From Raja brachyura (taxonomy: Eukaryota): DNA of 64,000 bases. The notes below the pieces were generated by a model. It was not told the origin of the DNA. It made no database searches and saw only the letters and a list, made by a program, of their open reading frames with translations. Shown here piece by piece: positions 8,135 through 56,365 of the stretch. A program made the position numbers and the translations under genes. The stretch is from assembly GCA_963514005.1 (NCBI GenBank), contig OY740821.1, positions 13,268,001 to 13,332,000 on the forward strand, written 5' to 3'. The first letter of the stretch is position 1, and every line of letters begins with the position of its first letter.

Positions 8135-8329
8135 CAGGATGGAACTGCAGATGCTGGTTTAAACCGAAGACAGACACAAAAATCTGGAGTAACTTAGCAG
8201 GACAGGCGGCATCTCTGTAGAGAAGGAGAGACTGACTCTGCCTGAGGAATGGTCTCAACTCGAAACATCACCGATTCTTTCACTCCAGAGATGCTGCCTG
8301 TAAGTTACTCCAGCTTTTTGTGTCTATCG
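8135..8329. mobile_element. Penelope-derived inverted-repeat element
   Basis: Same family sequence with inverted arms. TSD tctgcattgtt at 8124-8134 and 8330-8340. Decayed core CTGAGGA...GAAACATC at 8242-8269. Confidence 0.8.
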
Positions 8330-11300
8330 TCTGCATTGTTTGATGGAATTGGATTGAAATGGTTGACACACAGTGAAAATGTTTTTGGCGCACTGCATTT
8401 CCACAATACACAATCATGAGGCATCCATTTATTTTTTAATATACGCCCAGTTAACAATAATCAAGGCACTTCTCTTTCCCTCCAAAGCAAAGCACCACAA
8501 TTTTCTTATTTTACGGCATGTAAAATTAATAATTCCCTTTTAAAAGATCACAGGAAATTCATTGCGTTTGATTACAATTTCTATCCAGAGATTTGATCAC
8601 TTTGCAAAAACTAATACCTTAAGGGATGCCCATAATTGTTCCAGTCCACTCGAGAAAACCACAATTGAAATTATTTCACATTCACCAAATGATGGCACTC
8701 TAAATAACTTTCATTATGCTGTTTTTAATGAAGCATTTTTCCAAAATGATAACTGATCTAACCAAGCTAGTCTGTACTTTTGACGTGAATCCTTCCCATG
8801 ATCATTCAAATTCAAATTTGAAGACAGATCGATTCATTCATTTGGTCTTACTTGGAATAGAGAAAAAAATTCCAATTTAAAATAACTATTTTATGACGCT
8901 GTCCATCAATAATGGCAGGTCCACATGGGCATCAAAAAAAATGGTTCACACAAATCGAGCAAGCGGAATTTATGCAAAATCAACAATAGACCCGAAGTCG
9001 GCACAAGTACCTCAAAGCCAAATTATTGCAAGGCTTTGAGTGTGGAAGTGCATAATTCAGGAAGGAAGGGTACATCACTTCACAAGTCACACTCACACAG
9101 CATGGAAACGGGCCCTTTTGTCCAACACGTCCATGTGGACCAAGCTACTCCATCTGAGCTAATCCCATTTGCTCATGTTGACCCCATGTTCCTCGAAACC
9201 TTTCCTATCCGTACAACCTGTCCAAATGCAAAAGGATTTCTCAGAATATGCACATTTTCATACAAAGCAAGTGCAGGAAAAAAAACCACACAGCATTAAA
9301 CCATAAGACAATTTAATCCATCGGAACTTAAGTTTTCATTCAATTGGCAGACAACAACGTCTCATGTCTCAAAAGCCAGTTCTCTTTTTGCACATTTTCT
9401 GATCTTGTTTAACCACATGGTTGGGGGAAGAGACCCAGGGGCCCAGCCGTTTGTATAGCTGCCGCACAGCTCCAGCAACCCTCGTTTGATCAAGGATGCT
9501 GTTTGTGTGGAGGTTACACACTCAGCCAATGACTGCATGGGTTTCTACCCACCTCTCTCCCTGCTCCAGTTTCCTTCCACATCCTGAAGAAGTGGTTTGT
9601 TAGGTTAAGCGGCTGTGTAATACTGTGAATCACCCCAGGTGAAGCCAGAAGGCAGGAGAATCCGGGTGGGGTGGAGAGGAGTGGGTGAGAGTAAAGTTGA
9701 TAGCCATGTGCGAGAGAATAGGTTTCCGGGAAATACGTGTTTGGGGGGGGGGGGGGGGGGGGGAGGGGAGGAAAGAGAAGAAATGGGACTGTTCGGAAAG
9801 CTGACACTGGAGGAGATTATTTGGCCCATCAAGACCATGTTATAAGGAAATATAAATATGACAGCATTAAATATATACATACAAACCATCATCAGAACTT
9901 TTCAATTTCCTTCTTAACAAAATAATTCAAGTAAATGATTCAACTTGCAAAATACAGCAATTAGATTCCTAGGTCAAAAGTGTAATTACACAGGACAGGA
10001 GATGTGAAGGGGGGGGGAGATGACGAAAATTTCTGAAACTATTTAAAATTGTGAACACTACATTTTTTACTGGAGATTAAAGCATTCCTCTGAAAACAGA
10101 GAGTATTCCAGCAGCTTCCAGACAAATCCTGAAAAACATATGAAAGAACCCTTTCATGTACTTCAAAAAGTTAACTGCTGTCGCAGCTCAATTTACCCAT
10201 CATTCACAAGCTGTTTTATAGACTAGCATTTTGCAAACTTAAAATACAGTTGAGAGCTTACTTTATTATTTTCTGAACATACATCATTGGCCATCCCATC
10301 ACTGCACCCTTCAAGCATGGGAAGGCATTCTGCATCAAAATTAGAAATACATTTACTTTGATGACTCCTCTTTAGAATCAATAAATATTCAAGACTCAAA
10401 ATGCTGGAGTAATTCTGGAGAAATTCGGGTCAAAACCCTTCTTCAGACTGAGAAGGTCTGCCATTCCTTCCTACATAGTAGATATTCATGTGCTTTTTGA
10501 TTCCCCTGGGTAATCCAGTACCTACACACCAGCCTTTAAACCCAAGTTTTGCTTATCTTTGTTTCATGCAAGCATTGCGGCTAAGGTTGGAGATGTGCTT
10601 GGTAGGAAGCAACGCTCACCCTTTCAGATGACCAGTGATAAGTCACTCTGAAACTATGAACAGAATAGGCTATTTTGTACTAATAGCCCATGTCCTCTGG
10701 GATGCCAATCAGTTCCCCTTGGCTTTTATTTGAGATCACAATTGGGATACGAAGCTCTACAATAATGACGATAGATGCAAAACAATAGCTTGGGCGAGTG
10801 GTACAGCCTCTCTGAAGAACCAGGGTGATGCTCACCTCACCAAGCTTCAATTTGATTATTTTCAAATGATTTTATTTACAGTAGAATGCAATGGGCCAAC
10901 CCTTACAATGCACTGGGCAAAACTGTACATGCTACTGCATTAGCTTTGGGTTCATTGAGTAACAGTGTTACTTCTGGAATCTGAATGTTGTGGCCTTAAG
11001 ACAATCAAGAGATTTGAGCACATAAATCAAAGTTACACAGCAATCCAGTGCAAGACGTGGGAAACTAAGGTGCCAAGTTGTGCCGGATATCCTGTCTGCA
11101 GAGAGGTGTTTCAGTTTAGTTTTTTTGTCACATGTACCAAGGTGTAATTTTGTAGCGTGCTAACCACTCTAAGGGGGTTACAAATTACTCTGTAGCACTA
11201 GACAGGAGATGCATTCGCCCAGTGTCAAGTTTAATATTTGACCCTTAATTGACATCCCTAAAACACATTATTTGGTCATGATCACATTGCTGTGAGGTTC

Positions 11301-12009
11301 TGCACAAGCTATATGCCCATGTCTTACAATGATTGGACTTCAAAAAGATCTCAATAGCCTGACAACCCCGAAAGTCATCAAAAGTGAGTTAAATCTAACT
11401 CTCTCTTTTCAAGAGAGGGTTAAATTTAGCTCGAAGGGCTAAAGGATTTTAGATGATCAGCCATGATCATTTTGAATGGCGGTGCTGGCTCGAATGGCCT
11501 ACTCCTGTACCTATTTTTCTACGATCCACCCTTGAGCCACAGACAGGGCAGAAATCCCAAATTTTCTTACTTGGACTTTGCCTCAATTAGTGACACGCTT
11601 GTAGACAATGACAACACTCACCTCTTATCAATTGATCCCCAATGCACATCAGTCAGGGGAAATGAGCTTTGATATGGTAGTGCACAGAACCATTCTTTGT
11701 CTAACTAGAGAATTTCAGCACAGAAATGGAGAGGACAACAGAGAAAGGCTGGAAAGTAAGATGCACTTGTCAATTTCCTCCATACATAGTTCAAGAACAC
11801 AAGTTTTATCAAATTAACCAGATTTTCACATTGAACACTAAGAAAAGCCTTGTGGAGGGAGGGGACTTGGTTCAGGTTGTATTTTATGCCGAGGATACAA
11901 TTTTGAGAGTAAAAAGTCAGTATCTACAGAAGCAGACATTATCAGGAACATGTCCAGATCTGTTCAGATCCTCAAGGCACCTTCGTGGCTGATACAAGCT
12001 GGCAAAAAG

Positions 12010-12112
12010 CCCTGACATCAGTGACGAAGGATCTCGACCCGAAACGTCACCCATTCCTTCTCTCCAGAGATGCTCCCTGACCCGCTGAGTTACTCCAGCA
12101 TTTTGTGTCTAC
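12010..12112 (+). mobile_element. Penelope-derived terminal-repeat fragment
   Basis: gtgacgaaggatctcgacccgaaacgtcacccattcc...cattttgtgtctac, flanked on both sides by ctggcaaaa. Confidence 0.75.
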
Positions 12113-14435: not shown

Positions 14436-14897
14436 TCATAAGTCATAGGTGCAGAATTAGGCCATTCAGCCCAACAAGTCTACTATGGCAGATCACTTTC
14501 CCTTCTGGGATAAATAAAGTTCTATCATTTTGTATCTATCTCTCCCTCCCAACCCCATTCTCCTGCCTTATCCCCATTATCCCTGACACCCATACTAATC
14601 AAGAATGTATCTATCGCTGCCTTAAAAATATCCATTGACTTGGCCTCCACAGCCTTTTGTGGCAAAGAATTCCTCAGGTTCACCACCCACTGACCAAATA
14701 AATTCCTCTTCATCTCCTTCCTAAAGGAACGTCCTTTAATTCTGAGTCTATGACCTCTAGTCCTAGACTCTCCCACTAGTAGAAACATTCTCTCCACATC
14801 CACTTTATCCAAGCCTTTCACTGCTCGGAAAGTTTTAATGAGGTTTCCCCCTCATCCTTCTGAACTCCAGCGAGTACAGGCCCAGTGCCGTCAAACG
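14436..14897 (-). mobile_element. CR1 LINE 3' fragment
   Basis: MKGLDKVDVERMF...ESRTRGHRLRIKG...WVVNLRNSLPQKAVEA is homologous to the 2.3-3.0 kb copy. Confidence 0.85.
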
Positions 14898-25260: not shown

Positions 25261-25929
25261 AACCAACGCCAATCATTGGACCCATGAAAGACATCACATT
25301 GGATCTTGTTTCAACGCAAAAAAACATTGTTACCAACTGAACTGGAACCGAAAGTCCAAAATCTCTTTTTTTTTCTATATACGTCCATCAATACGGAATA
25401 ATTCACGGTCAATATTTAAAATATATTAAAAAACGGCACCTATTCCTATTCTCCTATTCCTATGTTGTAGTAAATGCCTTCTATGTTCTGTGTGCTAAAG
25501 CAAAGCAAGGATTTCATTGTCCTATCAGGGACACATGACAATAAACTCACTTGAACTTGAACTGGAACTTCTCCGGGGAAGCTGGACAAAGATCCTATAG
25601 CGGAGCTCGCTGAGTTACTCCAGCATTCTGTGTCCTCTATCATGTTCTCCAGAGATGCTGTCTGACCCGCTGAGTTACTCCAGCATTTTGTGCCTATCTT
25701 CAGTTTAAACTAGCATCTGCAGTTCCAACCTGCACATTTAAAATATTATCGCTCAGCCAGAAATTCAAAGAGAAAAATAATCGTATTTAGATCAGGAAAA
25801 GATTGACTGGGGAATGGACAATAGACGACTCTGTAATCTGGCTCCAGGATTGATTTGGAATGACCTCTATATCAATCAACTGCCATATAGGTTGTTCTGC
25901 AAACATCCATCACTCAAATCCAGGATTAG

Positions 25930-27998: not shown

Positions 27999-28144
27999 TG
28001 TAGAAACAAGGAACTGCAGATGCCAGTTTATTATTTTTTTTTAAAGACACAAAGTGCTGGAGTAACTAGTCGGTCAGGCACCATCTCTGGAGAACATGAA
28101 TAAGTGACGTTTCAGGTCAGGACCTTTCTTCAGACCCTTCTTCA
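27999..28144 (-). mobile_element. Penelope-derived terminal-repeat fragment with an intact hammerhead core (28106-28133)
   Basis: The minus strand reads CTGAAGA-A-AGGT-CCTG-ACCT-GAAAC-GTC, followed by the family tail. Confidence 0.8.
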
Positions 28145-31100: not shown

Positions 31101-33573
31101 TCAAATGGTTGCTACCAAGCTGTTGGCAGATACCAAAAGTTAAAATTTACAAAAAATAATGTCAAAGGAACAGTTTACTCTGCTCATAAAACATATAGCT
31201 AATTAGCATCTGAAATGTATACCCTAGTCCATCTTTGCTTCTCAGTTTAACTTATTGCGAAGGAAGAACATTTTGAATAATATTTACTATATACAGTACG
31301 AGTTGCCAATTTTAGTTGAGATGAGGTGAAAATCTTTCCCTCAAAACATTCTTCCTCAAAAGGTCAATGGAAGAAGTCTTTGAATGTATTTGAGGCAGAT
31401 AAGCAAGGAGTGAAAGGCGATTGATGGGCAGATGGGAATGTGGAGTCGATATTAGCTATAATCTTATTGAATGGCAGAAGATTGCTGGTAATTTGATTGT
31501 AACGCTAACTCCACATTGCGTGGCTGAGTGGCCTTATGCATACTTCTCAAGTTTGAACCACAATTAATTTCATATCTCCAATATGTCATTACTCCAATAT
31601 ATGTGCTTGCTAATATCAAAATCATTCCTTCTCCTAAAACAGTGCCTCAGGTGTATAATAAGATCAAGATCTCTGTGTCCACCTCAGCAAAGTGTTACAA
31701 TCAACTTCAGTGTCAACGAGCTTGGAAGGGAAGCAACAGGTAGGCTTCTCACTCCTAATTATATCTGGCCAGACTCACCATCCAAACTTACACACAAAGA
31801 ATGGGTGAAGTTTCATCTAGAAGCTCTGATTAAGTATGGGATTAAAGACATCCATTTAAATTAAGCTCAAGTTACTATCCTAAGGTGATATATTGCTCAA
31901 AAATGTGCACCATGTCATGTAAAACAAGTTAATTTTCAGCTCAAGCTCCATGAAGCTTCCATAGATTTCCCCAATGGCTGTGTATACCCTTCTTATTTAG
32001 GCAAACCACGCATTTGACTTTATTGTAAACAGAAGATGAAGTACCGTAGAGTCAAAACGCAAACAGGAAGACAGAAATTTAGCACAGTAAATGTCAGCAT
32101 CGTACACTCCAGTCTGACCTTTGGCATTTCACAATATTTCCAGTGAAATTATTAATCAAGGGGTTTACAGAGGAAGAGTCTGATCAAGATTAGAAAATAA
32201 ACGTGTGTAAATCCAACCACAGTGTTCTAATAAGTTTAAAAAACAGAAATCAACTTGCCTACTGTGACCAGCTTCTCAATACTGAAGCATGACAATCGAT
32301 CCAGAAATGGAATAAGAATAACAATATTCTTCCAAATGCAAAAAAAAATAGCATGCAGATCAAGCTTTTCACATAATAAACTAGACTAAATAATTATACT
32401 GCATTTGCAGCTCCTCCAGGCTTTTATTTCCTATCGCCAACCCCCCTTTCAATCTGCCCAAACATTAACTCTATCACAGGTCTCTCCTTAGAGTCAGTGT
32501 TATAGCATGGAAACCAGCCTTTTGGGCCCACCAAGTCTACAATGACCATACCCACCCATTTACACTTCTGTTCTCTGACTTGCTCTCCTGAGCCTTTCTT
32601 GCATTGTCTGGTTTCATTTCAGACTTTCAGCATCTGCGGTATTTTGCCCTTGTACAATTTCTCTGTAATCTCCATGTCGAGGATGAAGGTGACCCGCTTA
32701 CACAAGTTGCTTTTCAAAAAACAAAAGAGATCGTTGTATTTTGCAAAAAAAAGTGCTGCAGGGACACTGGGAATAATTTATGCAGCAACAGAAGTACAAT
32801 ATACGCATGCTTCCAAGTATTATTTTCATTGTTAAATTCCTGGTGTCAGCACTTCTGTCACAGGAGAGTCACTGAATGGAAGTTGGATATTTCCTTACTA
32901 TAGTGCAAGTGCACAATTGGCAACTTAAATTTGCTGGCAGATTATGGGCATTGGCATACAACTGGCAGCAAATGTTTGTCCATTTTCTTGATCAAAAACC
33001 CATGTAGAACCAAAACTGAGAAACTTAAGTAGGATAGTAAAATACGTACCTGTGATCTTATCATAGACACCAGATCATAGGACAACGCAAGCGTTATTTC
33101 CCCATAAACCTGCGGTGATGAGATCACGAACCTGTAAAATCCCTCCTGTGAACCTTATAGTCGACTGCTGTCACAAGGCACAAGTTAAAAAAAGGTCTGC
33201 GTTTAGAAAAAGATTGCTGCTTTCGTCTTTTTAAAATGAATGATGAGCTTTTCTAAAAAAAAACATTGATCTAAAATGAGGACAGCAGCAAGCTGCAAAG
33301 GAAATATTGCCAACGTTCTGTGTGAAAAGCATCTGCAGCCCACAGAATGCAACCATGCAATCAGCGATCTGTTCCCAGCATTGAGGTGTGGAATGGATCA
33401 ATGCATTCTATCTTAATTAGTGTTAATTATATTCAGCATTATGAACAATGGATATTTATTCTGGTAGGAACAGAAAATGAATTTCCTCTTGGAACAGTGA
33501 GAAACATTAGTTTGCTCAATGAAATAATGTTACGGTGTAGGTCCAACCAGCAATTAGAAAGGTAGACAGTGAG

Positions 33574-33700
33574 GTGTAGGAAGGAACTGCAGATGCTGGT
33601 TTACACCAAAGGTAGACACAAAATGCTGGAGTAATTCAGCATGACAGGCAGCGTCACTGGATAGAAGGAATGGGTGACATTTCGGGAAGGGTCTCGACCA
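33574..33700 (-). mobile_element. Penelope-derived terminal-repeat fragment (further partial copies at 1-41, 10392-10475, 25600-25735, 34635-34720 and 55260-55385)
   Basis: Shares the family signature ggaaggaactgcagatgctgg...gacacaaaatgctggagtaa...gggtgacatttcggg. Confidence 0.7.
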
Positions 33701-36700
33701 TTTTACAACTTGTTTTCTCTTCCAATTCTGATAAAGGTCATCAAAATGAAACTTTAATAGTTTCTGTTCTCTTGCCACAAATGGGGCCTGACATGAATAT
33801 TTGCATAATTTCAATCTTATTGACATGGTTGCAAGATTCAGTGATATTTAATGTAAAGTACAAGGTTAGTCCCAATTAAAATTATGGAAAAGTGAATCGT
33901 GCCTGGATTTGGCACACTTAAGAATCCCAACAAAATAACCATAGGAGAAAAGGCCAAAAGCAAATAAACATAACATGTAAGTAATTGTATCTTTACATTT
34001 TCACCCTTAAGGAACCCCCATCCTAAATAACCTAAAGAGGATAAAGTCAATTATTTTTTCCAGTTTCACATGCAAACCTTCCTTTTTTATTTAAGTACAG
34101 CCAGTTTCATATCACATGGGTAAGAATTAAACATCCTCTAACTTGGGGAAAAATAGAAAATAAAGGAGCTGGTGTGCACTTGTGCTGCTGAAAGAAACGG
34201 CTCATAGATGCAATGGAGATGGGATTTAATTTATCCATTGTCTCCCTGATAATCCCATACAAAAGGAGGACTGAAAATAGCATATCCATCTAATGCAACA
34301 TGGAATATGCATTATACCACAAAGAATGACTGCCTACGAAAAGTGTGCTTTAGAAATTGTGGATTGACCTTGCTGGATGGAAAAAAAGATTGGAAAGACT
34401 TGAATTACTTGAATAGGTAGACTCAAGTCATCAACTGTTAAAATTGCTTTTCTAAAGCACTTATAGAAAAAGAGCTGTTAAGAGTTACCAAGAAGAGGGA
34501 CATACTTTTAATGATGTAAATTGTAGAGAGCCTTGAATTTTTCAATTTGAAATTGCATAGAAAATTTAATTTGACAATGTTTCTTTTTAATCAAAAGTTT
34601 TAGCAACTAGTTCAGCTGTTGAATGCAATAAGGGAGTCTGACGAAGGGTCCCAAACAAAATGTCCCCTTTCCATGTTCTCCAGAGATGCTGCCTGATCTG
34701 CTGAGTTACTCCAGCACTTGTGATTTTTTGTCTTGTTTCAGTGTGGGACAGGATCACTTTGAACATGTCATACAAAATAGAAACAGTCGCTTCGGCACAT
34801 GTATCATTTGGTACGCCAGTTGAAAACAATAAAAAGCTGGGGTGGTGGATATTTAAAATTCTCCTGCATTGTCTCCAGGCTGTCAAAGCCTGTCCAGAAC
34901 AGTGGGACTCGGTGTATGTTGTCCACTTACCTTTTATTTGATGCAGATCGTTGTCCTAGCTCTCCTTGAAGGATTTCACAAAAAAAAAATCATTTTTATT
35001 ATTAATCTGCTGGATCTTTCATTTAATTCCCCTCAAAGGCTTCAGGTAGGGTTTTGCTGCAGATAGTTGGAAATTTCATTTGAGCTTCTTTGATGCTAGG
35101 ATTTTCCATGTCTTATGAATACTAGGATGCTTCAAAATACAACCAAGGAGAGCTTTGTGCAGGGGAAAATATGTTACAAGAATAAATTGTATTTATAATA
35201 ATGTTCACAAAACCAAAAGCTCAGTCGTACAAAAATAGAAATTTTATATACTGACTTCTGTACTGGGAAGAGCGGTAGGAGGCAAGGTTTCTTAGAGGTA
35301 GATTATGAAATATACATTTAATATTCTTAGTTTAGAGACAGAAACAACGGTTTGTTTCATCATTGTTCAGGACATGCGGGAAAATCACTGCCAAGGCCAT
35401 CAGTCATTGACCATCTTTAAATAGTTCTTGAGAAGGTGAAGCTGAGCCAGTACCTCAAACTATTGGGGTCCTTTTGGTGAAGGTACTTTACCATGTTGTT
35501 TCGGTATGGAATCCCAAGTTTGCCCTGCGACAGAGCAACAGTGGTGTGTTTCCAAATCTGAATTTGGAACACAGAGACAGAGTTTCCACATGGTGGTGCT
35601 TTACTCAACTTCTACCAGCAAGGAGGACAAGATCAGAAGGCACTGGATTTGGGATACTGTTGGAATGGCATAGGTGGGTAATGCAGTGCTTTTTTTTGGA
35701 TGGCACACACTAAACCGATTGTGGAGGGAGTATCTAGCATTGTGGAAAGAGCTGCTTTGTCCTGGACAGTATTGATATTGCACTTAGTTAAGCAAGTGAA
35801 TATCACATCAGACTCTTGATTTGTTTCTTGCAGATTGAAATGTTTTAGGGCATCAGGAGTTGACGCACATGTCACAGGATATCTATCTTCGACTTGCTTG
35901 TGTAGCTACAGTACTTATGGCTGATCAAACTGAGTATCTGGTTAAAAGGTCATCCAGGATGTTGATGATGAACATCCCGGCAATGGTAAATGCTTGAGAT
36001 GGTTCTGGCCCAACACAAATGCTACTCCTCATTTACAAGCCCAAGCTCTGAATGTCGTTTAGCTGCATGCAGATGTGGTCTACTTCATTTTGAGGATGTC
36101 AAATAAACAATTTAAGTTCAAAAGCATTCTCTGATAACATTAGAGAAGAATTCAAGGATGAAGGAATAATATAATTTACTGTAACATTTTAATGCTAAAT
36201 TGTGAAAGTACAACAGGAAAAAGTTGGTAAATGCATATTACACAGGTAATAGTCACACAGTGTGGAAACAGGCCTTTTGGCCCAACTTGCCCACACTGGC
36301 CAACAAGTCCCAGCTACACTAGTCCCACCTGCCCGCGTTTGGTTCATATCCCTCCAAACCTGTCTAATAAATTAGAAGGATTAGGATTAAATTTATGTTT
36401 TTATGCAAATAACCTGTAAATATCGACTGTAGCCGAGTAAAATGGTTCATGTTAGTTCCTTCCGTATAGGGTTTTAAGTCATACAATCCGAGAAATTTAA
36501 TATTCTTTTAAGATTAGAAAAATCACCCCAAAATGTGTTGTGTACACACACCCTGCTCCAACCTTAAACTTTGATGGCTTCATTCTTCGTCCAGCTCCTT
36601 ATTTAAATCCTTGACCTCAACCTCTCTCGTACTTAAATAGAAATTAGAGTTACCAGCAAAAAGCTATTTGCTCCATAACTTCATATTCAACCAGGTTTTT

Positions 36701-39078: not shown

Positions 39079-39319
39079 TGTGTAAGAAAGAACTGCAGAT
39101 GTTGGTGATAAATCGAAGGTAGACACAAAATGCTGAAGTAACTCTGTGGGTGAGGCAGCATCCCTGGAGAAAAGGAATGGGCGACATTTCGGGTAGAGAC
39201 CCTTCTTCAGAAAATCCCTTATAGTCTGAAGAAGGGTCTAGGCCCGAAATGTCGCCCATTCCTTTTCTCCAAAGATGCTGCCTCACCCACAGAGTTACTC
39301 CAGCATTTTGTGTCTACCT
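39079..39319. mobile_element. Non-autonomous Penelope-derived palindromic element with two opposed hammerhead cores
   Basis: About 95-bp inverted arms (39116-39210 and 39226-39320). Perfect 14-bp TSD ttaagtcaacactg at 39065-39078 and 39320-39333. Confidence 0.85.
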
Positions 39320-40957: not shown

Positions 40958-41179
40958 CTTTACCAAAAGACAAAAGAAAAGTAATTTATCTTTCATGAAG
41001 AGATAAAATAATGTAACTCAACCTTCTGTCCTAGTATGGCAACTGGAGCAATGTGATTGTTTCTCAGCATTTGGATGTAGAAAAGAGGGCAGTCAGCCGG
41101 CTCCTTTTTTTGATTGGTTCCATTTTGGAACCATTTAATACAAGTTTAAAGAAGATATGCAGGCTGTGTGTTTTTTTAA

Positions 41180-41830
41180 AACACCAAGGTGCGGAGTAAC
41201 TCAGCGGGTCAGGCAGCAACTCTGCAGAACATGGATGGGTGACATTTTGGGTCAGGACCCATGTTCAGACTGATTGTGGGGGGGGGGGGGGGGTGGGGGA
41301 AGAAGAAAGAGGAAATAAATCTTGGAGGAGAGACAGGACAAAGTGTGTCAGGTGGACATGGGCGGGGGCTTTTGATAGGCAGATAGTTGGAATAATGGCT
41401 AGAAATTAAGAGGGCGTGAGACAAAAAGATTGAAGAATTACAGATTGTGAAACCAGAAGAAGGAATGTAGGTGGAAGAAATAGGCGAGAGTCCAGGTGGG
41501 GCACAGGGAGGGGGGTTGTTAGAGATTACCTAAAATTGGAGAATTAAATGTTCAGATCATTGGGTTTTAAGCTACCAATGCAGAATATGAGGTGCTGCTC
41601 CTCCAGTTTCTGTGTGGCCTAACTCTGGCAATGAAGGCGGCCCAGGTCAGAAAGGTCAGTAAGGGAATAGGAATTAAAATGGTTCGTAACCAGGAGATCT
41701 GGTAGGCCTTGGCAGACAGAGTGCAAGTGTTCAGCGAAACGGTCGCTGAGTCTATGCTTGGTTTCACGAATGTACTGGAGGCCACCGCAGGATACCGGAT
41801 GCTGTAGACGAGATTGGAGGAAGTGCATGC
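41180..41830 (-). mobile_element. Degenerate Penelope-like element 3' fragment in the last SUOX intron
   Basis: LQYIRETKHRLSDRFAEHLHSVCQGLPDLLVTNHFNS is homologous to the 55.9-kb copy. The same terminal repeat is present, with a decayed hammerhead core at ~41241-41269. Confidence 0.8.
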
Positions 41831-42421
41831 AAACCCCTATTGCATCTGCTTCCATTACAGCCCCTGCACTGCAGCAACAGTGGTGGAAGCAGATATATAG
41901 TGGCGCATAAGAGACTTTTAGATAGGCACATGAATATACAGGGAATGGATCATGTATAGTGATTAGTTTAATTTGACATCATGTCTACACAGTCACTGTG
42001 GGCCAAAGGGCCAGTTCCTGTGTTATATGTTCTATGACCAAAATGATCCATACAACAATGGCTGAAGTCCATTGAGGTGCAGTGCAGAATTGACCTCAAC
42101 CACATTCACCACCTCTCTGTATCAAGCACCATCCATAAATAATGGTTACTTTGCCATAAACCAAAGCGTTTGTCATTCTCACAGAAAAATGTATCCCAAG
42201 CATCGTGTATCTCCAGCAGAGGAAAAAAAATCACGTGGCAGTGGCAGTGAAGAAAGCTAAAGGAATGTTGGCCTTCATAACAAGAGGATTTCAGTACGGG
42301 AGCAGATATCTATGATATGATCTTTCATAGGGAATATGGTACATAATCATTCTTTAAAAATATTGGTAAGGATATTAATGAAACCAGTTTGTAAATCAAC
42401 AATACATCTTTTGCTACATAC

Positions 42422-45600: not shown

Positions 45601-46065
45601 CTCAAATTGACATCTCCCCATTAACTAGACTATCTTGAAGTAATCTGTTCACACTTGTTACTTATACAGCATATGTGTGTGGTGGTTAGCTGAATCCTTG
45701 TTATTATAACATCAAATATTGTGCAAGGTTTACAGCAGAAGTAATATGTATTGAAAATGACCTACAAAGATCAAGAGCAAACAGTCATATTTTGAGGGGC
45801 AAGGTATCCACAATCGTAAGGAACTGCCTAAGAAGGTGATGTTCAGTTGAAGCGCTGGCACATCCATTATTACAGCACTCCACGAGAACCCACTTTCATC
45901 TGGGGCAGGACTTGAATCCACAACCCCTAACCCAGAGTTGCTCCCAACTTAGTCAAGGCTGACATTAGTTTCTCACTTACACTTGGGAAAAAGGGCCTCA
46001 TTAACTGGCTGTTTCAGATCTACAAAATAAATTAGAGTTGTTCTCCTCAACAAGATAAACATTAC

Positions 46066-46124
46066 CTGCTTTGTATCTGCCAGATGCCCAGAGCAGACCG
46101 CGTACACTTAAGGAACGACATCAT
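46066..46124 (-). CDS. SUOX: Sulfite oxidase coding exon 1 (start codon; exon begins at 46129)
   Basis: Acceptor tctgtctctag|GTACTATGATG and donor AGCAG|gtaat. Encodes MMSFLKCTRSALGIWQIQS(R), which has no acidic residues and resembles a presequence. Phase 2 matches the next exon. The joined CDS is 59+193+1443=1695 nt, or 564 aa plus stop. Confidence 0.8.
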
Positions 46125-46970
46125 AGTACCTAGAGACAGAATAACATTTCAATTTTAATCAGCTGATTATATTTTAATCTATTGTATTTTAACTACCTAC
46201 TTCAATAGGGGGTTGCAATCAGAAAACCAATGGAATAGAACTTGATCGGCCAGTTTGTTAATTCTTGGAGTTTAAAATGCATTAGAGGAACAACTTCAGG
46301 CTGGAAGTCAATATATTGAATATATTTACAGTTCTCAAACAGTAACTTGTATCAGTGCTTCAAACATGAAACATTTGTAACAAATGGAGAATAGTTAATG
46401 CATGCGAGTAGTCAGAGGAAACAGATATGGAAACAACGTGTTTGCTGTCCCTTTCGCCAGCAGAGTGCATTGCTCACTAACAACAATAGCTCATGTTAAA
46501 TCGAACTGTCACCAGTAGAGCTAATAGGACTTGATGTTTCAATCCCTGTAATAAGTCGGCACTCTTGCTATTTGCAGTGGGATTGGAGGCAGAGAGTACT
46601 AAGTCACACACAAAACAGCATTTGGACTGTCAGTTAAAAAGTTACCCAACTCAAAAACCATCGCAGCAGACTACTGAGGTAATGCTCTATTTAAAACAAT
46701 TTGATTTGCATATTATGCCCTGTTAAACAACTACGCAAAATATTTAAACCCATACATGATTAACAAGTGGCATGAGGTAAATGGGTAAGACTTCCAAGTT
46801 AGTACACTGGAACAAAGCAAAAGTATAGAGTTTCCTAAAGTGTAAAATATCCCAAATAAAATGTGATTCTCACTTGACTCTCAAATATAAAGCTTCAATA
46901 AAACAGAGTTTTTTTACATGCTCAAATTCACAAAGGATCATCTTTTCAAAACATCAATAAAAATGGAAAG

Positions 46971-47083
46971 TACACAAAAGGCTGGAGAAACTCAGCGGGT
47001 GCAGCAGCATCTAAGGAGCGAAGGAGATAGGCGACGTTTCGGGTCGAGACCCTTCTCCAGCATCTGCAGTTCCTTCTTTAACA
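46971..47083. mobile_element. Penelope-derived element with an internal inversion, in SUOX intron 1
   Basis: Family sequence in minus then plus orientation. 15-bp TSD aataaaaatggaaag at 46956-46970 and 47084-47098. Confidence 0.8.
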
Positions 47084-48709
47084 AATAAAAATGGAAAGCT
47101 GTCTATTTCTCGTGGCAAGTAGACACATTTACCACAGTAGATTTATTTCCACCAGTGAAATGTTGTAGACCCACAAAAACTTGCATTTGTGTAATACTTG
47201 CCGCAAAGGTTAGGCCAGACATACCCTGGTCAAAAACAAAGTCAACGTTGGAGTCCAAAGTCAAAGTACAAAATCCTGTGGTCAGAGGGGGAGGAGGTTG
47301 ACTCACTGGAGTCAGCAGTTTCAAGGTCAGTTATGGAACAAGAGCATCCTTCTGAAAGTATCTGGTGCCCGAGCAACAATGGAGGCTCCTTTTACCCAGT
47401 GAAAAATGGAGAATCAGCCACGAGGCGCAGAGATCGGCAATTGCAGTATTAATAGTGAAAACTAGCATATCCAAAACATGTAAGATTCTTAACGGGCTTG
47501 ACAAAGTAGACTCGAGGATAATTATTTCCCTGGCTGATGCATCTAGAACCAGGAATCAGGAGTCAAAAAAACCAGGAGATGTTTCGATAGATGGAATCAA
47601 AGGATGTGGCGTTAGTGCAGGAAAGTGGCACCGAGGTCAAAGATCAGCCACAATTGTTCTGAACAACTGAATAGTGGTGGGTATCTTGAACAAGTTGCCA
47701 GAGGAAGTGCTAGAGATGGGGACATTACAAAGTTTAAAAGACATTTGGACAGGTACACAATAGAAAAGTTTAGGGGGATATGGTCCAAACACAGGCAAAT
47801 GGGACTAGCTCAGATAGGCTCCTTGGTAGGCATGGGCAAGTTGGGCCAAAGGGTCCGTTTCCACACTGTATGACTCTATGAAAACAGGTATATGGGGCTG
47901 AATGATCTATTCCTGTTTATATTCCTTATGCTGCCTTCTCGGCTTTATTGTGCTGGAATACAATAATAAAACCTTGCAGATCAACCCTGAAGATGTTCAA
48001 TACAGTTTGCATTAAAACTGGTTGCAATAGAATGGCAGAGCAGCCATAGCAACCAAGACAAGTGGCCATGGATCATGGTAACCCAGATTAAAAAAGGCTC
48101 CAGAAAAATACACAGTTGTAAACATGGTACAAAAAAGTTGAATCAAAACAAGCAAAGTAGGCAGTTTGCTCTATAAAGATGGCTATCAATTTTCAGTTTG
48201 GGCCAAAACATACCCACCATGTGCCAATGATCGAGATTTTTGAGGAAAGAGTAGGAATTGGAGTTTTCCACTCAACAAAAATCACAGTTGATCTTAATTG
48301 CCATTACATTTATGCAACTCGGTTCTGTAATAATGCCCTTGCCTCAGAGAAATACGTGGCAGGAGAAGAATTAAATTAGAAATTTTCAGCTGACCCCATG
48401 TTTTGTTTAAAGTGGGGGTGGGAAAGTATTAGATTTGTACTGGCCTTTAAGTGGTGATATCCCTACTGAAGGATGTTGGTCTACTCAGAAGGTTACACTA
48501 TCTTGTTCCTGATTATTCCACTGCAATTAAACAATAATCTTTATTAACCCTTATAGTTTACTGAAATGCAGAGATTAGATTAGACCTCAAATGTTCTGCA
48601 GTCATAAAAGTAATACAAGTTTTGTCTACAGAACTTCACCTTTAATTTGAACCTTTTAACTCTGATATGTAAGTGATGTTGGCATTGCTGCCAAATATGA
48701 CATTTATTG

Positions 48710-48815
48710 GGTACACAAAATGCTGGAGAAACTCAGCGGGTGCAGCAGCATCTATGGAGCGAAGGAGATAGGCAAAGTTTCGGGCCGAAACCCTTCTTCA
48801 GACTGAACCTTTTAT
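48710..48815 (-). mobile_element. Penelope-derived terminal-repeat fragment in SUOX intron 1
   Basis: Family sequence with a 12-bp TSD tgacatttattg at 48698-48709 and 48816-48827. Confidence 0.8.
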
Positions 48816-49995
48816 TGACATTTATTGCCCATCCCAAAATATATTTTAAAGGTGTTGGTGACCTGCCCTTTGAACCAGCGAAGTTCTTTTGGTGAAGGTA
48901 CTGCTGCAGCATTGTTAGGTAGTGACTTCCAGATTTCAACCCAAATGAAGGAATGGCAATGTTTTCAAGTCAAGATGCTGTGAGTTGGTCAATCTGTGCT
49001 ACATAACCTCCAAGTCTGACACATCCTTCCCAGAGGCTCAGAAGTGAGCAGAGTAGCTTAAACAGTCAAATCCTATTCATATCCAACTTTACAAAAAGCA
49101 CAATCTGTCTAATTACTGTCCAAATTAGTCTCTCCTCAGCCATCAGCAGAGTGATGGGAGGAGTCGTTAACTATTGAGAGGCAGATATTCACCAATAACT
49201 AGTTCTCCAATGCCCAATTTGACTTTCCTCCCAAGAAACACTTGGTTCTAGACATCATCTCTGCTTTGATCCAAACATGGACCAAAGAGCTGAGTTCCAG
49301 AGATGAGAGTGATTGCACTTGACATCAAGGAACCCTTGTAAAAGTGTAATCAATGGACACCAAGAGGAAAACACTCTACTGGGTGGAGCCATGCCTTATT
49401 CAAAGTAAAATGGTTGTGATTATTGGACGTCAATCTTCCTAACTGCACGACATTATCTCAAATTCTTCATGTCAGTGTCCTAGGGCAAACCACCTTCGAC
49501 TGCTTCCTTCCACAAGATTGGAAGTGGGGATGTTTGTTTAATTCTCACTTAATTCTATGTCAGCAGCAAACTCAAATGTTCCACTTGCTCTCCTCCAGCA
49601 TCCCTTTGAGGTACATTGTGTATAGTTGGGGCCTCAAGCATCAATCCCCTCTATTCACAACTTGAGAAAGAACCATTTAATCCGACCTTTGCTATTTCCT
49701 TATGTACTCTTTATTTTGTGTCTTAGTTAACTCTCAAATGTCATGCTAGTTTATAACTTCCAATTCCATGTGTTCTAATCCCATTGGCCAACATCCTTCT
49801 TATCAAAAGCCTTCTTTATAAATCTAAATACCCCACATTCAATGGCTCCCTCTCATCTATTCTACTGGATACATCTCAAAGATCACACAAAAGGAACCAG
49901 ATACACAGACGAAGGCTCATCCATTTACCTTCTTCACCTTGCTTTAGGTCTTGATTAAAATAACTTAAAAAGAACAACCTTTTTTTTTATAAATA

Positions 49996-50174
49996 TGTAG
50001 CAAGGAACTGCAGATGCTGGTTTAAACTGAAGGTAGTCACAAAGTGCTGGAGTAACTCAGCGGGACAGGCAGCATCTCTGGAGAGAAGGAATGGGTGAAG
50101 TTTCGAGACCGAAGAAGACTCCAGAGATGTTGCCTGTCCAGCTGAGTTACTCCAGCATGTTGTGTCTATCTTCT
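49996..50174. mobile_element. Penelope-derived inverted-repeat element with the centre deleted
   Basis: Inverted arms (gctggagtaactcagc...ctctggag and ctccagag...gttactccagc), flanked by similar T-run/taaata sequences. Confidence 0.75.
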
Positions 50175-50778
50175 GTTTTTTTTTTAAATACAGGCAGAAG
50201 ATTGAAAAAAAATTGCCCGAGAAGGGGAACTATTTTAGATTTCTATTGCACCATCACATTTATATGATTGTCTTTTAATTTGTGAGAAACACTGGAGTGC
50301 AGAAAAGCAACCAGTGAATTCCAAAGATTCACCGTACTTTGTGTATAGACATCTCGTAATTCAGCCCAGGTCAATATCTATTCGTAAAATAACAAATAAC
50401 ACAGAAAAATGATTAGCTGGCCATCATTTCTGACAGCGTTTGTGGGAACTTGCTCTGAAGGCGAATCCAACAGTGATTACACTCTACAACTCCGAAATGC
50501 TTTGAGACCCCTTGCGTTATAGAAACTATTCTCTGCCCGCTTCCGCTACCTGTCAAGTGAATGTGTGCCTTTTTGGAGGTGGGATAAGGGAATAGAAAGT
50601 GTGGAGGATTCAAGCAATATTTTCTTTCACCTTCCAATACCAATTAAGACGAAAAAAAACTTTTCTCCCCCAGATATTATCCACATTTTCTCAACCCTCG
50701 GGAAGGCATCTGACCACAGGATTAACCGTGTAACTGAAAGGTTCGAATCGGTGATTGTTGAGAAGATATCCCTCAAAT

Positions 50779-50806
50779 AGTGTGTGTGTGTGTGTGTGTG
50801 TGTGTG
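50779..50806. repeat. (TG)n microsatellite at the edge of the SUOX CpG island
   Basis: About 13 TG units, read directly. Confidence 0.9.
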
Positions 50807-51260
50807 GAGGACCGACTGGGCAGCGGCCCTTGGTCTTAACCCCATAGGTCTCACATTTTAACCTCAAGAGGTTCGGTTTATGGTGCCGATACAATAATGA
50901 CCACGTCGCCGTTTTAAACCGGGCGTTAGTTACTCCGCTGCCCTCGGTCTCCGTCCACTCAAAGCCATTAAATGACATTCCACTCACATTTAGTCAAAAA
51001 CGCCGACAGAAATTCTCCTCCAAATCTTCGCCGGCTGGAAAATTCTTTCTCTTCGCCTCACGCCGCCGCTCGCGTTCCCATCACCAGCTCACTCGAGCGC
51101 TCTGCGCAAGCGTGGCCTCCGAGCCGTTCCCGCGGGTGACGAGCTCTTATGGCGGCGACGGCGACCGCGAGCAGCGTCTTCCATCGCGCCGAGCCTCAGG
51201 GCACTGAACTTGACAGGGTCCCGCGGTGAGATGGCGGATGCGGGCTTTATATTTGTGACT
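50800..51260. promoter_or_regulatory. CpG island, probable SUOX promoter and non-coding first exon
   Basis: Sharp CpG/GC enrichment about 5 kb upstream of the SUOX start exon. Contains NRF1-like tgcgcaagcg and two YY1-like ATGGCGG motifs. Candidate minus-strand donors are CTCGA|gtgagc (~51092) and GCGGC|gtgagg (~51061). Confidence 0.7.
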
Positions 51261-51502
51261 GAGGTAACACAATAAATGGCAGCAGCAGTCCATTCGTCCC
51301 TGGGGGCTGCTCTCCAGTCAGCCAGATCATGACTGATCCACACTGTCCAAACACTATCTATCAAAACATACATTACTCATCAGGTCAGGCAGCGGGTGTA
51401 GTGAGAGAAACAAAGTGAATGTTTTGGGTCTGAGACCCCTTTGTCAGCCCTGTTCCAATGAAGGGCCCCGGACCCGAATCGTTAACTTCCTCTCTCCACA
51501 GA

Positions 51503-51695
51503 TATAGAAACATAGAAAAATAGGTGCAGGAGTAGAGGCCATTCGGCCCTTCGAGCCTGCACTGCCATTCAATATGATCATGGCTGATCATCCAACTCAG
51601 TATCCTGTACCTGCCTTCTCTCCATACCCCCTGATCCCTTTAGCCACATCTAACTCCCTCTTAAATAAAGCCGATGAACTGGCCTCAACTACCTC
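51503..51695 (-). mobile_element. CR1 LINE extreme 3' fragment nested in a Penelope-derived repeat (51380-51745)
   Basis: Near-identical to 2310-2500 (atagaaacatagaaaaataggtgcaggagtag...). The flanks resemble the Penelope-derived inverted arms. Confidence 0.8.
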
Positions 51696-52374
51696 AATAT
51701 GGCCTGCTGACCTGCTGAGTGTTCCCAGCATTTTCTGTTTTTTTTAATTAATTTCAGGCATCGAGCAACTGCAATTTTGTTTTGCCCCATCCCTGTATTC
51801 CTTAATCCTCATATTCTTTTAATTCTCATATTGTCCAAATGTCTATCAGCCTCAGCATCAATGACTCTGCAATAGACATTTCCAAAGATTTACAACTCAA
51901 ACTATAATATTAAAGCCTAAGATAAATTCAATGAGGCACAATTTCTTATGTCTGCAGCATTAAAGAAACACTGGTTTTCAGTTGTGTTTTTTTGACAAGC
52001 AGCTTGTTTTGGAATGTTCACATCCTTGGTGGTTTGTTTAAGAATTCAAAACAAGGAAGAATTAAATTTACCCTCAGTAAAGTTTACTTTGACAGCGAGA
52101 AGGTCTTTGACAGTTGTTCTGCGTATGGATGGCTCCATTGGAGCGTTACAATTTCCACGTTCCTAGCCTTCTCGAGTGACGTGTCCTGGGCTCGGCCTAG
52201 CACATACATGTATGTAATCACAAAGTAGGCATGGCATGCCTCTACTTTTTTCAAGTTTAAAGAGATTCGGCATGTGAGCAAATGCTCTGACAAATCTCCA
52301 CACATGCAATGTAGAAATTATCCTGACCGGTTGTCTCATGACCTGATACAATTATTGCAACGCACAAGAATGTA

Positions 52375-53270
52375 AAAGGCCACAGAGTCAACCTGGTCCA
52401 TCACAGGCACAACCCTCCCCACCATTCAAGAATCTACATGAGGTGCTGCCTCAAGGAGGCTGGCTATCTTCAGGGATCCCCACCATCCATGCCCTCTTCT
52501 CGCTGCTACTATCAGGAGATACACAAGCCTGAAGTTGCACACCACCAGGTTCAGGAATAGCTACTTTCCTACAACCATCAAGTTCTTGAATCAACCTGCA
52601 CAACCCTAATCCCACCTCGGTGGATTACTACAGACAGCCTCTTGCACTACCATTGAGTATTTTGTACTCATATCTTGTTTTTATGCATAATCCTTTTCTT
52701 TTTCATAGTCCCCAGCAACTCTCGCCAACTTTTATAGATGCGCCATAGAATTTATTATATCAGGATACATCACAGCATGGGAACAGCTCCACCCAAGACG
52801 GCAAGTAATTGCAGAGAATTGTGGACACAGTTCAGACAGTCTCACAAACCAACCTCCCTTCCATTGTCTCCATCTACAATTAATGCTGCCTCAGCAAGGG
52901 CACCAGCATAATCAAGGACCAGTCTCAATCCAGTCACATCCTCTTCTCCCCTCTCCCATCAGGCAAGTGGTACAGACGTTTGAAAACACATACTTCCAGA
53001 TTCAGGAACAAACAGTTCCTTCCCACCTGTTGTCAGGCAACTGAAACATCCTTATCAATGACTAGAGATTGGCTTCGAGCTACTATGTACCTCATTGGGG
53101 ACCATCGGACTATCTTTAATCGGAATTTACCTTGCACCAAATGTTATTCCCTTCGTCATGTATCTGTACACTGTGTAATCATTTATAGTCATTCAAATGA
53201 CTGGTTAGCACGCAACAAAAAGCTTTTCACTGTAACTTGGTACATGTACAATAAACCAAATTAAACTAAA
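52375..53270 (+). mobile_element. Two decayed Rex1/Babar 3' fragments (52375-52620 and 52740-53270)
   Basis: Motifs equivalent to IIKDPTHP..LF.PLPSG.RY..T.RF.NSF.P, then aataaa and a simple tail. Confidence 0.65.
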
Positions 53271-54047
53271 GCTGATTAATATTCCCAATCATTAACTTTT
53301 TGTGTATTAGTTTAGTCAACCACAAATGGGCAAATGCCAGGGATTTCAGTTCAGGTTTCAAGCAATCGCTACTTAATAAAATACAGAATTTTCAGTTCAT
53401 TTTCTCTTTTCCAACTCTGCCTGTGGTTCTCGATTTATGTTGCAATATTGTTGTATAGTCACTGGTCAGCTTCAGTACCCCACCTGTCCAAATTACGCCA
53501 ATCTTACTTTCAAGCAGCAACATACTTCCTACAAATATTATCAGTTCACAGAGGATCACAGAGTCATACAGCGTGGAAACAGCCCTTTGGCCCAATTATC
53601 CATGCAGACCTTATCCATCTACCAGTTCAGAAGCACTGAGATTTATGTCCAAGTACCACCCCAACTGAAATCAGTCGATCTACCAGAAACAGACTGTCTA
53701 CCCTAACTATGCCTCTCATAATTTTATTTACTTCTATCAAGTCTCCTTTCAGCCTCCAGCGTTCCAGAGAATATAATTACATTTATCCAACCACTCCTTG
53801 TAGCAGAAATCCTCTAATTCTGGGAAAACGTCATCTGCACCCTCTCTAAAGCCTCAGCATCCTTCCTGTAATGGAGCGATCAGAACTGCACACAAACCTA
53901 AGTTCCAGAATTTCAACACATAATCCACAGTGACACTTCCTTGCATCGTCGACAAAATGCCACGCTGTTGTGATGGGCCAAATGTTTATTTACCTGTTCA
54001 GCTGAAAGTGAAGGATCTTGCATTGTATCATTTGGAATAGAACAGAG

Positions 54048-54201
54048 GGGTGGGAGATTGCAACCTTCACGTGGTCCGCCCTGTTTCAACTAATGCAGTC
54101 AACGTGGCGTGCACAATCAAATAAGATCAAATAGAACAAGTTGTCCTACAACTTTAGGCTGTGTACACCATAAGCAAGAAGAAGAAGAAGAAGAAGAAGA
54201 G
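54048..54201 (+). mobile_element. Short non-LTR retroposon insertion with (AAG)n tail
   Basis: 10-bp TSD tagaacagag at 54038-54047 and 54202-54211. Tail of about 8 AAG units. Confidence 0.7.
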
Positions 54202-55918
54202 TAGAACAGAGTGTTCACCTTTAACTAAGACATAAAAAAGAGATATTTGTTCATTTATTGTTTGTTGAACTTGCTCTTCCCAAATTAACGAGAGCACTTG
54301 AAAGCAATTTATTGATTTCAAGCCATCTTGGAACATACTCAGCGTTTGAGGTATGGGGCTCGATCAATAAGACCATACCAGCATCATTACATTTTATCTC
54401 ATTAAAAAAATGTGCTTTCTTAAAAAAGGTTTAATCATATTTTCTGCAAATTTTGTGGTCCGAGAGGAGTTGAAAAACTACCAAGCAGCATTCAGTTCCA
54501 TTGTAAAAGCAATGCGATGGAGTTAGGCTACATTTTAACAATAGAGTTGTCCTATAAACCTTTTGTTGCAACCTGCCTGACTTGTGTTAAGATGAATAAA
54601 GGAATTCTCACCAAGATCTTTTGCATACTTTTTTGCGATATTGGTAAATACCTCTCTGTAAAAGTATTTCGCCATCAAGCAATCTGTTCCTTTTTTTTCA
54701 TACTAAGTAACAGCCTCAATATTCCACGAATCTGAAAATAAATGTTTGACAGATTTGCCTTCTTTGTATGGCACCTGCCTGGGTAACTGAGAACAGGTTT
54801 CAGAGAATGAATTTGTGTTCAGCAGTCAAGCAATTTGCACTGAACAAAGGACAAATTAGACAAATAAACAGGTAATCTGTACTTTTCACTTTAGGTTCAA
54901 ATATTCACCAAGGCACTGAGAGAAGCACCTATTTCTTCTTCTAGTGATGCCATAAGATATTTAATATCCACCTGATCAGGACTTCACAAAGGGTGGCACC
55001 TCAGACAATGCTGCACTATAATGTTAGACTAGGTCATGTACTCGATTCTTTGATTTTGGGCTTGAATTCACAAATTTTAGTTAGAAGCCAAGTTATAATC
55101 GCAAAACCAAGGTTGTCACGAGTTTGTTAGAAAACAAGTACTTTGATGATATCTTTCAATCCTCAACTACCTGCACAAACAAAAATGTGTTATTTCACTC
55201 CTTGTAAAGAAACACTTTGACTTAAGTTTATGCACTAGTGTGAAGATACCGAGTATCCAGTCTAGACAAAGTGTCCCGATCCAAAACATTGACTGTCCAT
55301 TTCTAGATGCTGCATGACCTGTAGAGTTCCTCCAGTAGCTGTTTTATTTTTGCTCGAGATTTCAGTATATTCATTCTCTTATGTCTCGACCTATAAATCA
55401 CAGTTGTGCAGTATCATGTCTGGATACTAACTTGCTGCTTCTTCTTATCGAGTCCACGCACAAGATCATAGGTAGTTCAGCCAGAGCTGAACACACTTCT
55501 TGGCATCACTAACTTGCTTATTCAGCTGCGCTCTAGCTATGATCTTTGATTCAGCCCCAGTCTGGCAGACAGAGAAGCACGCCCAATTTCCAACTTGATG
55601 CATGCACTAACCATGTTAATGGATGTGACAAACCATGTTACAGGCATGAGCCCTAATCGTATAGGTAGCAAGCTTCACTCTTTATTTTCCTTTGCAACTC
55701 TGTTCCGGTCACAGTTTGAATACAATGTTCAGTGTTGTTTGGCAAAGCACCAAGAAAACACCCGAAAATCGAGAAAGTGTGCAGAAGGGCACTACAGCAA
55801 TCCTTGAGACCAAGTAAAGAATCAAACAACTTAAAACTGTATCCTGATAAAAGATCTGCACTCCAAATTTTCTCTCTTTAATCTGCAAATGGTAGTGGAG
55901 TTGATGTGTCATTTTTCC

Positions 55919-56365
55919 TGTGAGACCAAGCGTAGGCTTGGCGATCGTTTCGCCGAACAACTCCGCTCGGTTCGCATTAACCAACCTGATCTCCTGGTGG
56001 CTCAGCACTTCAACTCCCCCTCCCATTCCGAATCCAACCTTTCTGTCCTGGGCCTCCTCCATGGCCAGAGTGAGCACCACCGGAAATTGGAGGAGCAGCA
56101 TCTCATATTCCGATTGGGCAGTCTGCACCCCAGCGGCTTGAACATTGACTTCTCCAATTTCCGTTAGCCCTTGCTGTCTCCTCCCCTCTCCCCTTCTCAG
56201 CTCTCCCTCAGCCCTCGGGCTCCTCCTCTTATTTTCTCCTTTCTTCTCCCCACCCACCCACCCTACATCAGTCTGAAGAAGGGTTTCGGCCTGAAACGTT
56301 GCCTATTTCCTTCGCTCCATAGATGCTGCTGCACCCACTGAGTTTCTCCAGCATTTTTGTCCACC
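55919..56365 (+). mobile_element. Penelope-like element 3' fragment (GIY-YIG endonuclease C-terminus plus terminal repeat with hammerhead core)
   Basis: ETKRRLGDRFAEQLRSV...AQHFNSPSH...LEEQHLIFRLGSLHPSGLN matches the end of PLE GIY-YIG domains. It is followed by a pyrimidine tract and CTGAAGAAGGGTTTCGGCCTGAAACGTT (56273-56300). Flanking duplication tgtcatttt(t)cc at 55907-55918 and 56366-56376. Confidence 0.85.

Follow-up and report, generated by a model that had tools for sequence, protein, structure and literature searches.

The 64-kb window of the skate Raja brachyura considered here (contig OY740821.1 of assembly GCA_963514005.1, positions 13,268,001 to 13,332,000 of the forward strand; coordinates below count from its first letter) holds a sulfite oxidase gene and one dispersed repeat family, many of whose copies carry, intact or degraded, the core of a hammerhead ribozyme; two copies also hold remnants of a GIY-YIG endonuclease from a Penelope-like element (PLE). 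A profile search with nhmmer (E≤10) gave 39 matches. Of these we retained 16 main-family loci (Table 1), which together occupy 2,841 bp (4.4% of the window), and omitted the weak matches as well as three older look-alikes, near 44.3, 51.4 and 62.1 kb. The density, about one locus per 4 kb, bears out an initial annotation of this DNA, which had described a dispersed repeat family of high copy number. Summed contig depth in run X3 was roughly 1e4–1e6 in family bins and 10–20 in unique bins, figures that do not translate into a copy number. The family's downstream motif had no match among viral, prokaryote-genome and metagenome contigs. The omitted look-alikes (44345-44510, 51375-51452 and 62100-62330) are older and more divergent, two of them form head-to-head pairs, and they are possibly earlier PLE subfamilies.

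The strict core (CTGANGA, 8 to 16 nucleotides, GAAAYGTH) occurs four times in the window, at 28106 and 39183 on the minus strand and at 39226 and 56273 on the plus strand, against 0.03 occurrences expected, and none of 100 shuffled sequences reached four. The initial annotation had listed eight sites; all eight lie on family copies, but only these four have the full core. The site at 8242 ends in CATC and lacks the first pair of helix II, C3 is lost at 12021, A6 has become G at 47033, at the junction with an inverted tail, and the site at 48774 ends in CTTT. Among the 11 copies with an alignable core, all 11 catalytic bases are intact in six, and the four helix II pairs are kept in eight and broken at a pair in three. 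The bulged base before the G10.1-C11.1 pair is present, as is, in the subfamily majorities, the ACGT palindrome (15.1-16.1); 28106 and 56273 are the only sites where this palindrome accompanies a complete core. At 2 bp, helix I is as short as had been proposed, and with the core boxes, the NUH cut triplet and helix II in place the proposed minimal type I hammerhead architecture is supported. In the long copy at 41155-41835, the core (41241-41268, minus strand) has become complementary to that copy's downstream arm through two changes of the sort that a quasi-palindrome template switch would produce.

Since insertion, the core has been decaying neutrally in the skate copies. Private substitutions affect 7/104 catalytic non-CpG positions and 57/592 downstream positions (p=0.46), so that after subfamily correction there is no private excess conservation of the core and the selection on helix II suggested by the initial annotation is not borne out in the window. 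We discarded a first conservation test (6/110 catalytic vs 106/649 downstream, p=0.002), in which the downstream count was swollen by gaps and by differences between subfamilies. CpG positions decay faster than the rest (14/68 vs 81/819, p=0.012). As for the compensatory changes reported in helix II, one two-sided change stands (copy at 28106), but the C-to-T half of it falls on a CpG, and the U-G wobble is characteristic of a subfamily.

The coding remnants point to the parent. Of 104 candidate proteins, 28 matched the 81-residue remnant at 55922-56164; Leucoraja supplied the best (81% and 76%), and the remnant is 59–65% identical to proteins of Hypanus, Rhincodon and Stegostoma; the remnant at 41.6 kb is 56% identical to a Rhincodon protein over 54 residues. 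These skate, ray and shark Penelope-like matches support the PLE parent that had been claimed and agree with a skate or ray as host. The remnants themselves scored no Pfam family. Among eight relatives, seven score GIY-YIG (one above the cut-off) and four score a reverse transcriptase (RT), and two ray or shark proteins with 59–65% remnant identity score both; an RT is present in relatives 59–62% identical over the remnant, and in P0001, one of the four RT-scoring proteins, the RT part seems by eye unrelated to the PLE alignment. A C-x4-C-x2-C linker precedes the endonuclease in 7/8 relatives, the window remnants beginning downstream of it. Because a CX2-5CxxC linker between RT and endonuclease is described as marking Neptune and Nematis (Craig et al., 2021, PMC8557442), and only Neptune and Poseidon PLEs are reported from vertebrates (Li et al., 2026, bioRxiv 10.64898/2026.07.22.740005), the parent likely belongs to the Neptune clade, an assignment read from the linker, which Nematis shares. 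A comparison of the protein alignment with viral contigs gave no relative. The repeat had been said to follow the GIY-YIG remnants directly; the link is confirmed at 55.9 and 41.6 kb, but a pyrimidine-rich spacer of 106 and about 258 nt, respectively, separates stop codon and core. At 55.9 kb, endonuclease remnant, spacer and core all lie within one 9 bp target-site duplication (TSD) and were therefore inserted as one piece. A predicted Stegostoma protein, P0005, extends through the 3′ repeat and ends in the residues that the hammerhead core would encode; this protein suggests the same motif in a shark element.

Comparison with distant relatives provides the stronger evidence for a ribozyme. 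Metagenome contigs yielded 503 confirmed relatives, of which we took the best 80; the end of the endonuclease is included in 66 of them, and in 57 the DNA continues far enough downstream. The core, together with helix II, lies in sense, 70–430 nt past the endonuclease, in 31 of the 57 (34 without the helix filter), compared with none in antisense and a mean of 0.08 in shuffles, and a one-mismatch core was found in 11 of the 26 non-matching relatives (one antisense). Helix I, for which we did not select, forms 36 pairs over 10 representatives (about eight independent families), against 2–4 when slid and 10.8 when permuted (0/20,000); it is clear and covarying in the invertebrate relatives, and in the representatives U16.1 does not vary and G never occupies position 17. 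Helix II, partly selected for in the relatives, is 97% paired with two-sided changes across families. In a mixed alignment of nine skate and eight invertebrate rows, 86% of cells pair, with two-sided changes at all seven pairs, and this alignment exceeds all 500 shuffles on four of five measures, a result that relatedness inflates. Judged from these alignments, the motif is a true PLE minimal hammerhead at the family level, the evidence being strong across families and weak within the window. Five invertebrate relatives (L033:1789, L044:475, L049:237, L058:2372 and L073:2371) carry an inverted ribozyme-bearing copy upstream of the open reading frame (ORF), on the minus strand, in the same head-to-head layout as the skate twins.

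The copies were inserted separately, as the initial annotation had held from their 9–15 bp TSDs. Exact TSDs of this length flank seven of the 15 loci tested, compared with 3/600 random intervals; one of the seven is poly-T and weak, and locus bounds were refined after the first scan, which makes a binomial p optimistic. We also compared contigs of four public runs across 38800-57000. A contig of run X14 (organism E, about 2–3% different) joins 48697 to 48816 with no letters between, the gap 48698-48815 being copy L plus one TSD, so that the site is exactly empty. In another X14 contig the match picks up again at 47084, where the second TSD of copy K starts, after a piece whose end the listed distances place at 46949, and copy K is likely absent in organism E. 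Copy L is present in the organism B run and copy K in the organism C run. This presence and absence between species implies that the family was still inserting after the species split, whereas H, I, M and N, whose ends lie inside X14 contigs, are older insertions. Such dense, species-polymorphic insertions are presence/absence markers for skate phylogeny. Two other indel polymorphisms, outside the family, were seen: 44563-44677 (115 bp) is skipped by a single organism B contig, and 46514-46593 (80 bp) is likely skipped by a single organism E contig.

The anatomy of the copies fits what has been described for PLEs. Their 3′ ends fall at one of two points 35–40 bp apart, which defines an optional tail; two ends of this kind are attributed to a pair of internal sites at which the RT starts (Frangieh et al., 2024, PMC11167929). 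Head-to-head twins occur at loci A, H and M, one arm of each bearing the tail, and in B and K only the tail is inverted. A twin layout with 8–10 bp duplications has been described, with self-priming on an antisense template as the suggested cause (PMC3846280), and the two 3′ end points and one-tailed twins agree with three accounts (PMC3846280; Craig et al., 2021; Frangieh et al., 2024). With the coding remnants, the motif shared with distant relatives and the separate insertions, this makes it very probable that the repeats are separately inserted 3′ ends (pseudo-long terminal repeat, or pLTR, pieces) of an endonuclease-positive (EN+) PLE with an inherited, mostly decaying type I hammerhead. 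In the mechanism we envisage, the parent's GIY-YIG endonuclease would make a staggered cut in AT-rich DNA, the RT would start inside the RNA at one of two sites, about 60–65 and 100 nt past the ribozyme cut site, and would copy uncut RNA through the core, usually stopping at its 5′ edge; priming from both cut DNA ends would yield the twins. The skate copies retain both sides of the cut site, and the templates were therefore uncut or religated; uncut-RNA templates have likewise been found in vitro (Frangieh et al., 2024). The parent's ribozyme would cut after GUC/GUU only as a dimer, through the ACGU palindrome, or with the element's protein.

Several observations weigh against this reading. 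The window contains no RT and no full-length element; eight of the 15 loci lack a TSD of at least 9 bp; 23 of the 57 distant relatives have not even an unfiltered core within 800 nt, and the ten representatives are not all independent; and the Rfam comparison proposed in the initial annotation gave no hammerhead covariance-model match among 11 matches at E≤5. The skate helix I is shorter than in most relatives and has an ensemble probability ≤0.02, and helix II reaches ≤0.05 in 7/8 skate monomers (the exception being 39183, at 0.72) because the 5′ core pairs with bases past the cut site. Single skate copies are predicted to be inactive in self-cleavage, in keeping with the doubt the initial annotation had voiced about monomers, and with folding of this kind even the skate parent might carry a dead motif. 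The motif may be the fossil of a real PLE ribozyme, inactive in that parent and kept for another role such as promoter function or protein binding, an explanation compatible with PLE origin that we hold to be rather unlikely. Besides the 2 bp helix I and the competing hairpin, it draws on the contrast with the invertebrate representatives, in 7/10 of which helix II is stable, and on published work in which ribozyme mutants had no effect on insertion in vitro (Frangieh et al., 2024) and eight of nine Xenopus dimers remained uncut, one being active (Li et al., 2026). On the other side, the majority sequence among the 1,470–2,000 contigs running on from locus M in each of three DNA runs has an intact core, in two subfamily versions, a genome-wide retention, and the three skate subfamilies differ at 17/62 downstream but only 1/11 catalytic columns, a difference that is not significant (p=0.27). 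Nor is poor monomer folding proof of ribozyme death, because the Anolis Poseidon ribozyme cleaves only with the element's protein (Frangieh et al., 2024); for the minimal hammerhead ribozyme (min-HHR) class as a whole, monomers are reported not to cleave and dimers to cleave poorly (Cervera and De la Pena, 2014, PMC4209133). That the hammerhead likeness arose by chance in an unrelated miniature inverted-repeat transposable element (MITE) or short interspersed nuclear element (SINE) would accord with the lack of an Rfam match and with the resemblance of some loci to inverted-repeat elements; we give it next to no credence, since the core is continuous with GIY-YIG coding DNA inside one TSD and a covarying motif stands in the same place in 31 of the 57 distant relatives, which refutes it unless those relatives are not PLEs.

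Where the short copies begin bears on how pLTR pieces of the parent arise. Relative to C3, the 5′ ends of 19 mappable segments lie at +1 to +65 in seven cases and at –12 to 0 in ten, and two segments run more than 350 nt; given the downstream hazard, 10 of 12 stops within 13 bases has p ~2e-9, in a test made after the fact, with twins that are not independent and with six old or edge segments dropped. Loose-end majorities between runs lose agreement just past –5, a weak sign, as mixed subfamilies would do likewise. The candidate causes of the pile-up are run-off at a transcription start, cDNA hairpin release, arrest in the C-rich tract, or self-promoted short masters. The core's 5′ edge carries TCAGT, which we take to be initiator-like. 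An initiator-like TCACT is reported in a PLE pLTR (PMC3846280), and helix I is where an intron ends in D. virilis (Cervera and De la Pena, 2014), the start site lying 46 nt ahead of this intron (PMC2377424). A pyrimidine tract and AG precede the skate core, and the short copies have no common upstream exon; a conserved splice acceptor or initiator before the core was absent in the 10 invertebrate representatives, and is skate-specific at best. Our tentative suggestion, about which we remain doubtful, is that the ~100–135 bp copies are strong-stop-like products rather than random truncations, the RT starting internally near the mRNA 5′ end and running off at a start 3–5 bases before the core, at TCAGT. 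If so, the ribozyme would sit at the very 5′ end of the mRNA, the 5′ ends of the hundreds of thousands of copies implied by the density would map the element's start site, and single min-HHRs would flood vertebrate genomes without any non-autonomous family. The same pile-up, with 14 short copies to two long ones, the TCAGT and the derivation of retrozymes from pLTRs (Li et al., 2026), would also fit a non-autonomous family that propagates itself, either SINE-like or made of dispersed retrozyme monomers, from its own start site and using PLE protein in trans. We judge that origin improbable: the 5′ ends spread from –12 to 0, tails and inversions differ between copies, the window has no two-core tandem array, and the short copies come from three subfamilies, of which two include long copies with the endonuclease as well. 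Of the two origins that the initial annotation had left side by side, a dedicated non-autonomous family is therefore the less likely, and extreme 5′ truncation, in the form of short reverse transcripts of the parent, is favoured. Through the 5′ pile-up at the ribozyme edge, the way in which PLEs produce solo repeats and the ribozyme's position in the mRNA both become testable.

Table 1. Copies of the repeat family in the window, with target-site duplications (TSDs).
Locus	Positions	Strand	Structure	TSD
Edge copy	1..42	+	tail only; the window edge truncates this further copy	
A	8135..8329	.	head-to-head twin; minus arm with tail, without core; plus arm with degenerate core 8242-8269	11 bp at 8124 and 8330
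B	10392..10481	-	body with internal deletion that removes the cut site; inverted tail	7 bp candidate (below the 9 bp threshold)
C	12008..12112	+	single short copy, C3 lost, without tail	9 bp at 11999 and 12113
D	25603..25736	+	two tandem 3′ pieces with tail, without core	
E	28001..28135	-	short, with tail; complete core 28106-28133, ACGT palindrome retained	
F	33572..33700	-	copy with tail; 5′ half of core (33685-33699) locally inverted	
G	34635..34730	+	short copy; G12 lost, helix II broken	
H	39079..39319	.	head-to-head twin; complete cores 39183-39210 (-) and 39226-39253 (+)	14 bp at 39065 and 39320
I	41155..41835	-	long copy; GIY-YIG remnant (broken) at ~41526-41835, then pyrimidine-rich spacer and degenerate core 41241-41268	
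K	46971..47083	-	short copy fused at core to inverted tail	15 bp at 46956 and 47084
L	48710..48815	-	young short copy; palindrome broken (CTTT)	12 bp at 48698 and 48816
M	49995..50175	.	head-to-head twin; core mostly missing	poly-T candidate
Q	51707..51760	+	old 3′ fragment, without core	
N	55256..55345	+	old short copy; core decayed	
O	55916..56365	+	GIY-YIG C-terminal remnant 55922-56167, pyrimidine-rich spacer, complete core 56273-56300	9 bp at 55907 and 56366

The family also touches its host gene. The sulfite oxidase gene, with cytochrome b5, molybdopterin and dimerisation domains, comprises the ORF at 39515-41017 and an upstream exon at 42422-42616 (both minus strand). A contig of run X12 (organism D, RNA by our guess) splices the ORF exon to 42421-42616, and the GT-AG intron skipped in this way holds locus I. 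This spliced contig reaches 39310 and a second one covers 38802-39138, at depths of 44 and 39 compared with 6–15 for intron pieces. Because contigs of such similar depth flank locus H and the first AATAAA past the ORF is near 38320, locus H likely lies within the sulfite oxidase 3′ untranslated region (UTR), though no contig spans it. There the twin would form a hairpin of about 105 bp; the locus folds as one long hairpin (–191 kcal/mol, z –25), in which both cores would be buried and which is a possible substrate for A-to-I editing. Rfam microRNA matches at 39.1-39.3 kb and 50.1 kb are below the gathering score and reflect the inverted twins. The family puts long hairpins into host mRNAs, likely including that of sulfite oxidase.

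Other repeats share the window. Fragments of one family at 2307-2979, 14525-14886 and 51504-51692 contain a C-terminal reading frame like that of a long interspersed nuclear element (LINE) and are presumably CR1-like. LINE remnants lie at 6535-7566 (minus strand; Pfam RVT_1 and ALKBH8_N matches in two frames), 52709-53264 (plus) and 62289-62941 (minus). A repeat present twice (19973-20263 and 37542-37776) has tRNA-like A and B boxes and is probably a shark-type SINE, which we take to be HE1. A near-perfect 63-base palindrome at 27712-27774, with an Rfam microRNA match below the gathering score, is possibly a small MITE.

No publication on PLE hammerheads of skates or sharks came up in our literature search, which covered neither Dfam, Repbase and subscription journals nor the 2026 preprint's supplements, and two supplement files of Cervera and De la Pena (2014) contained no shark or skate term. 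The novelty claimed in the initial annotation is nevertheless lower than it had seemed, as dispersed single min-HHRs of fish Neptune PLEs are already in that 2014 paper, which reports the class for Xena, Poseidon and Neptune PLEs of fishes, coelacanth and Xenopus, with dispersed single motifs by the thousands in the latter two. The min-HHRs described there in metazoan PLE pLTRs have the same core boxes, one unpaired base between 9 and 10.1, the G10.1-C11.1 pair, a palindromic 15.2-16.2, no helix III stem and sense orientation in the pLTR, and are mostly dispersed single copies. Helix I is 2 bp in the skate, as in D. virilis, and 4–5 bp in Schistosoma, and the density of about one locus per 4 kb sets the skate apart from those cases. 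The Neptune EN+ PLEs (Craig et al., 2021) and the skate family's close relatives share RT, a zinc-finger-like linker and GIY-YIG at the C terminus, and 5′ truncation, partial tandems, inverted 5′ copies and an optional 30–40 bp tail recur in the skate copies; unlike those elements, the window holds only C-terminal endonuclease remnants. Vertebrate non-LTR retrozymes (Li et al., 2026) are likewise pLTR-derived, hammerhead-bearing and protein-free, and occur as dispersed monomers. In one chondrichthyan, PLE-derived retrozymes are described as tandem units, each with a ribozyme, of mean 363 bp, whereas the skate units are ~100–135 bp, single or head-to-head, with TSDs; head-to-tail units each with a ribozyme are absent from the window, its sole tandem (25603-25736) being without cores. 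Anolis Poseidon (Frangieh et al., 2024) likewise has two 3′ ends past the ribozyme, AT-rich targets and copies made from uncut RNA, but belongs to another clade, and its ribozyme was shown to cut with protein help, where the skate's is only predicted to. Set among these systems, the skate family is an addition to a ribozyme class described in 2014 and changes no principle.

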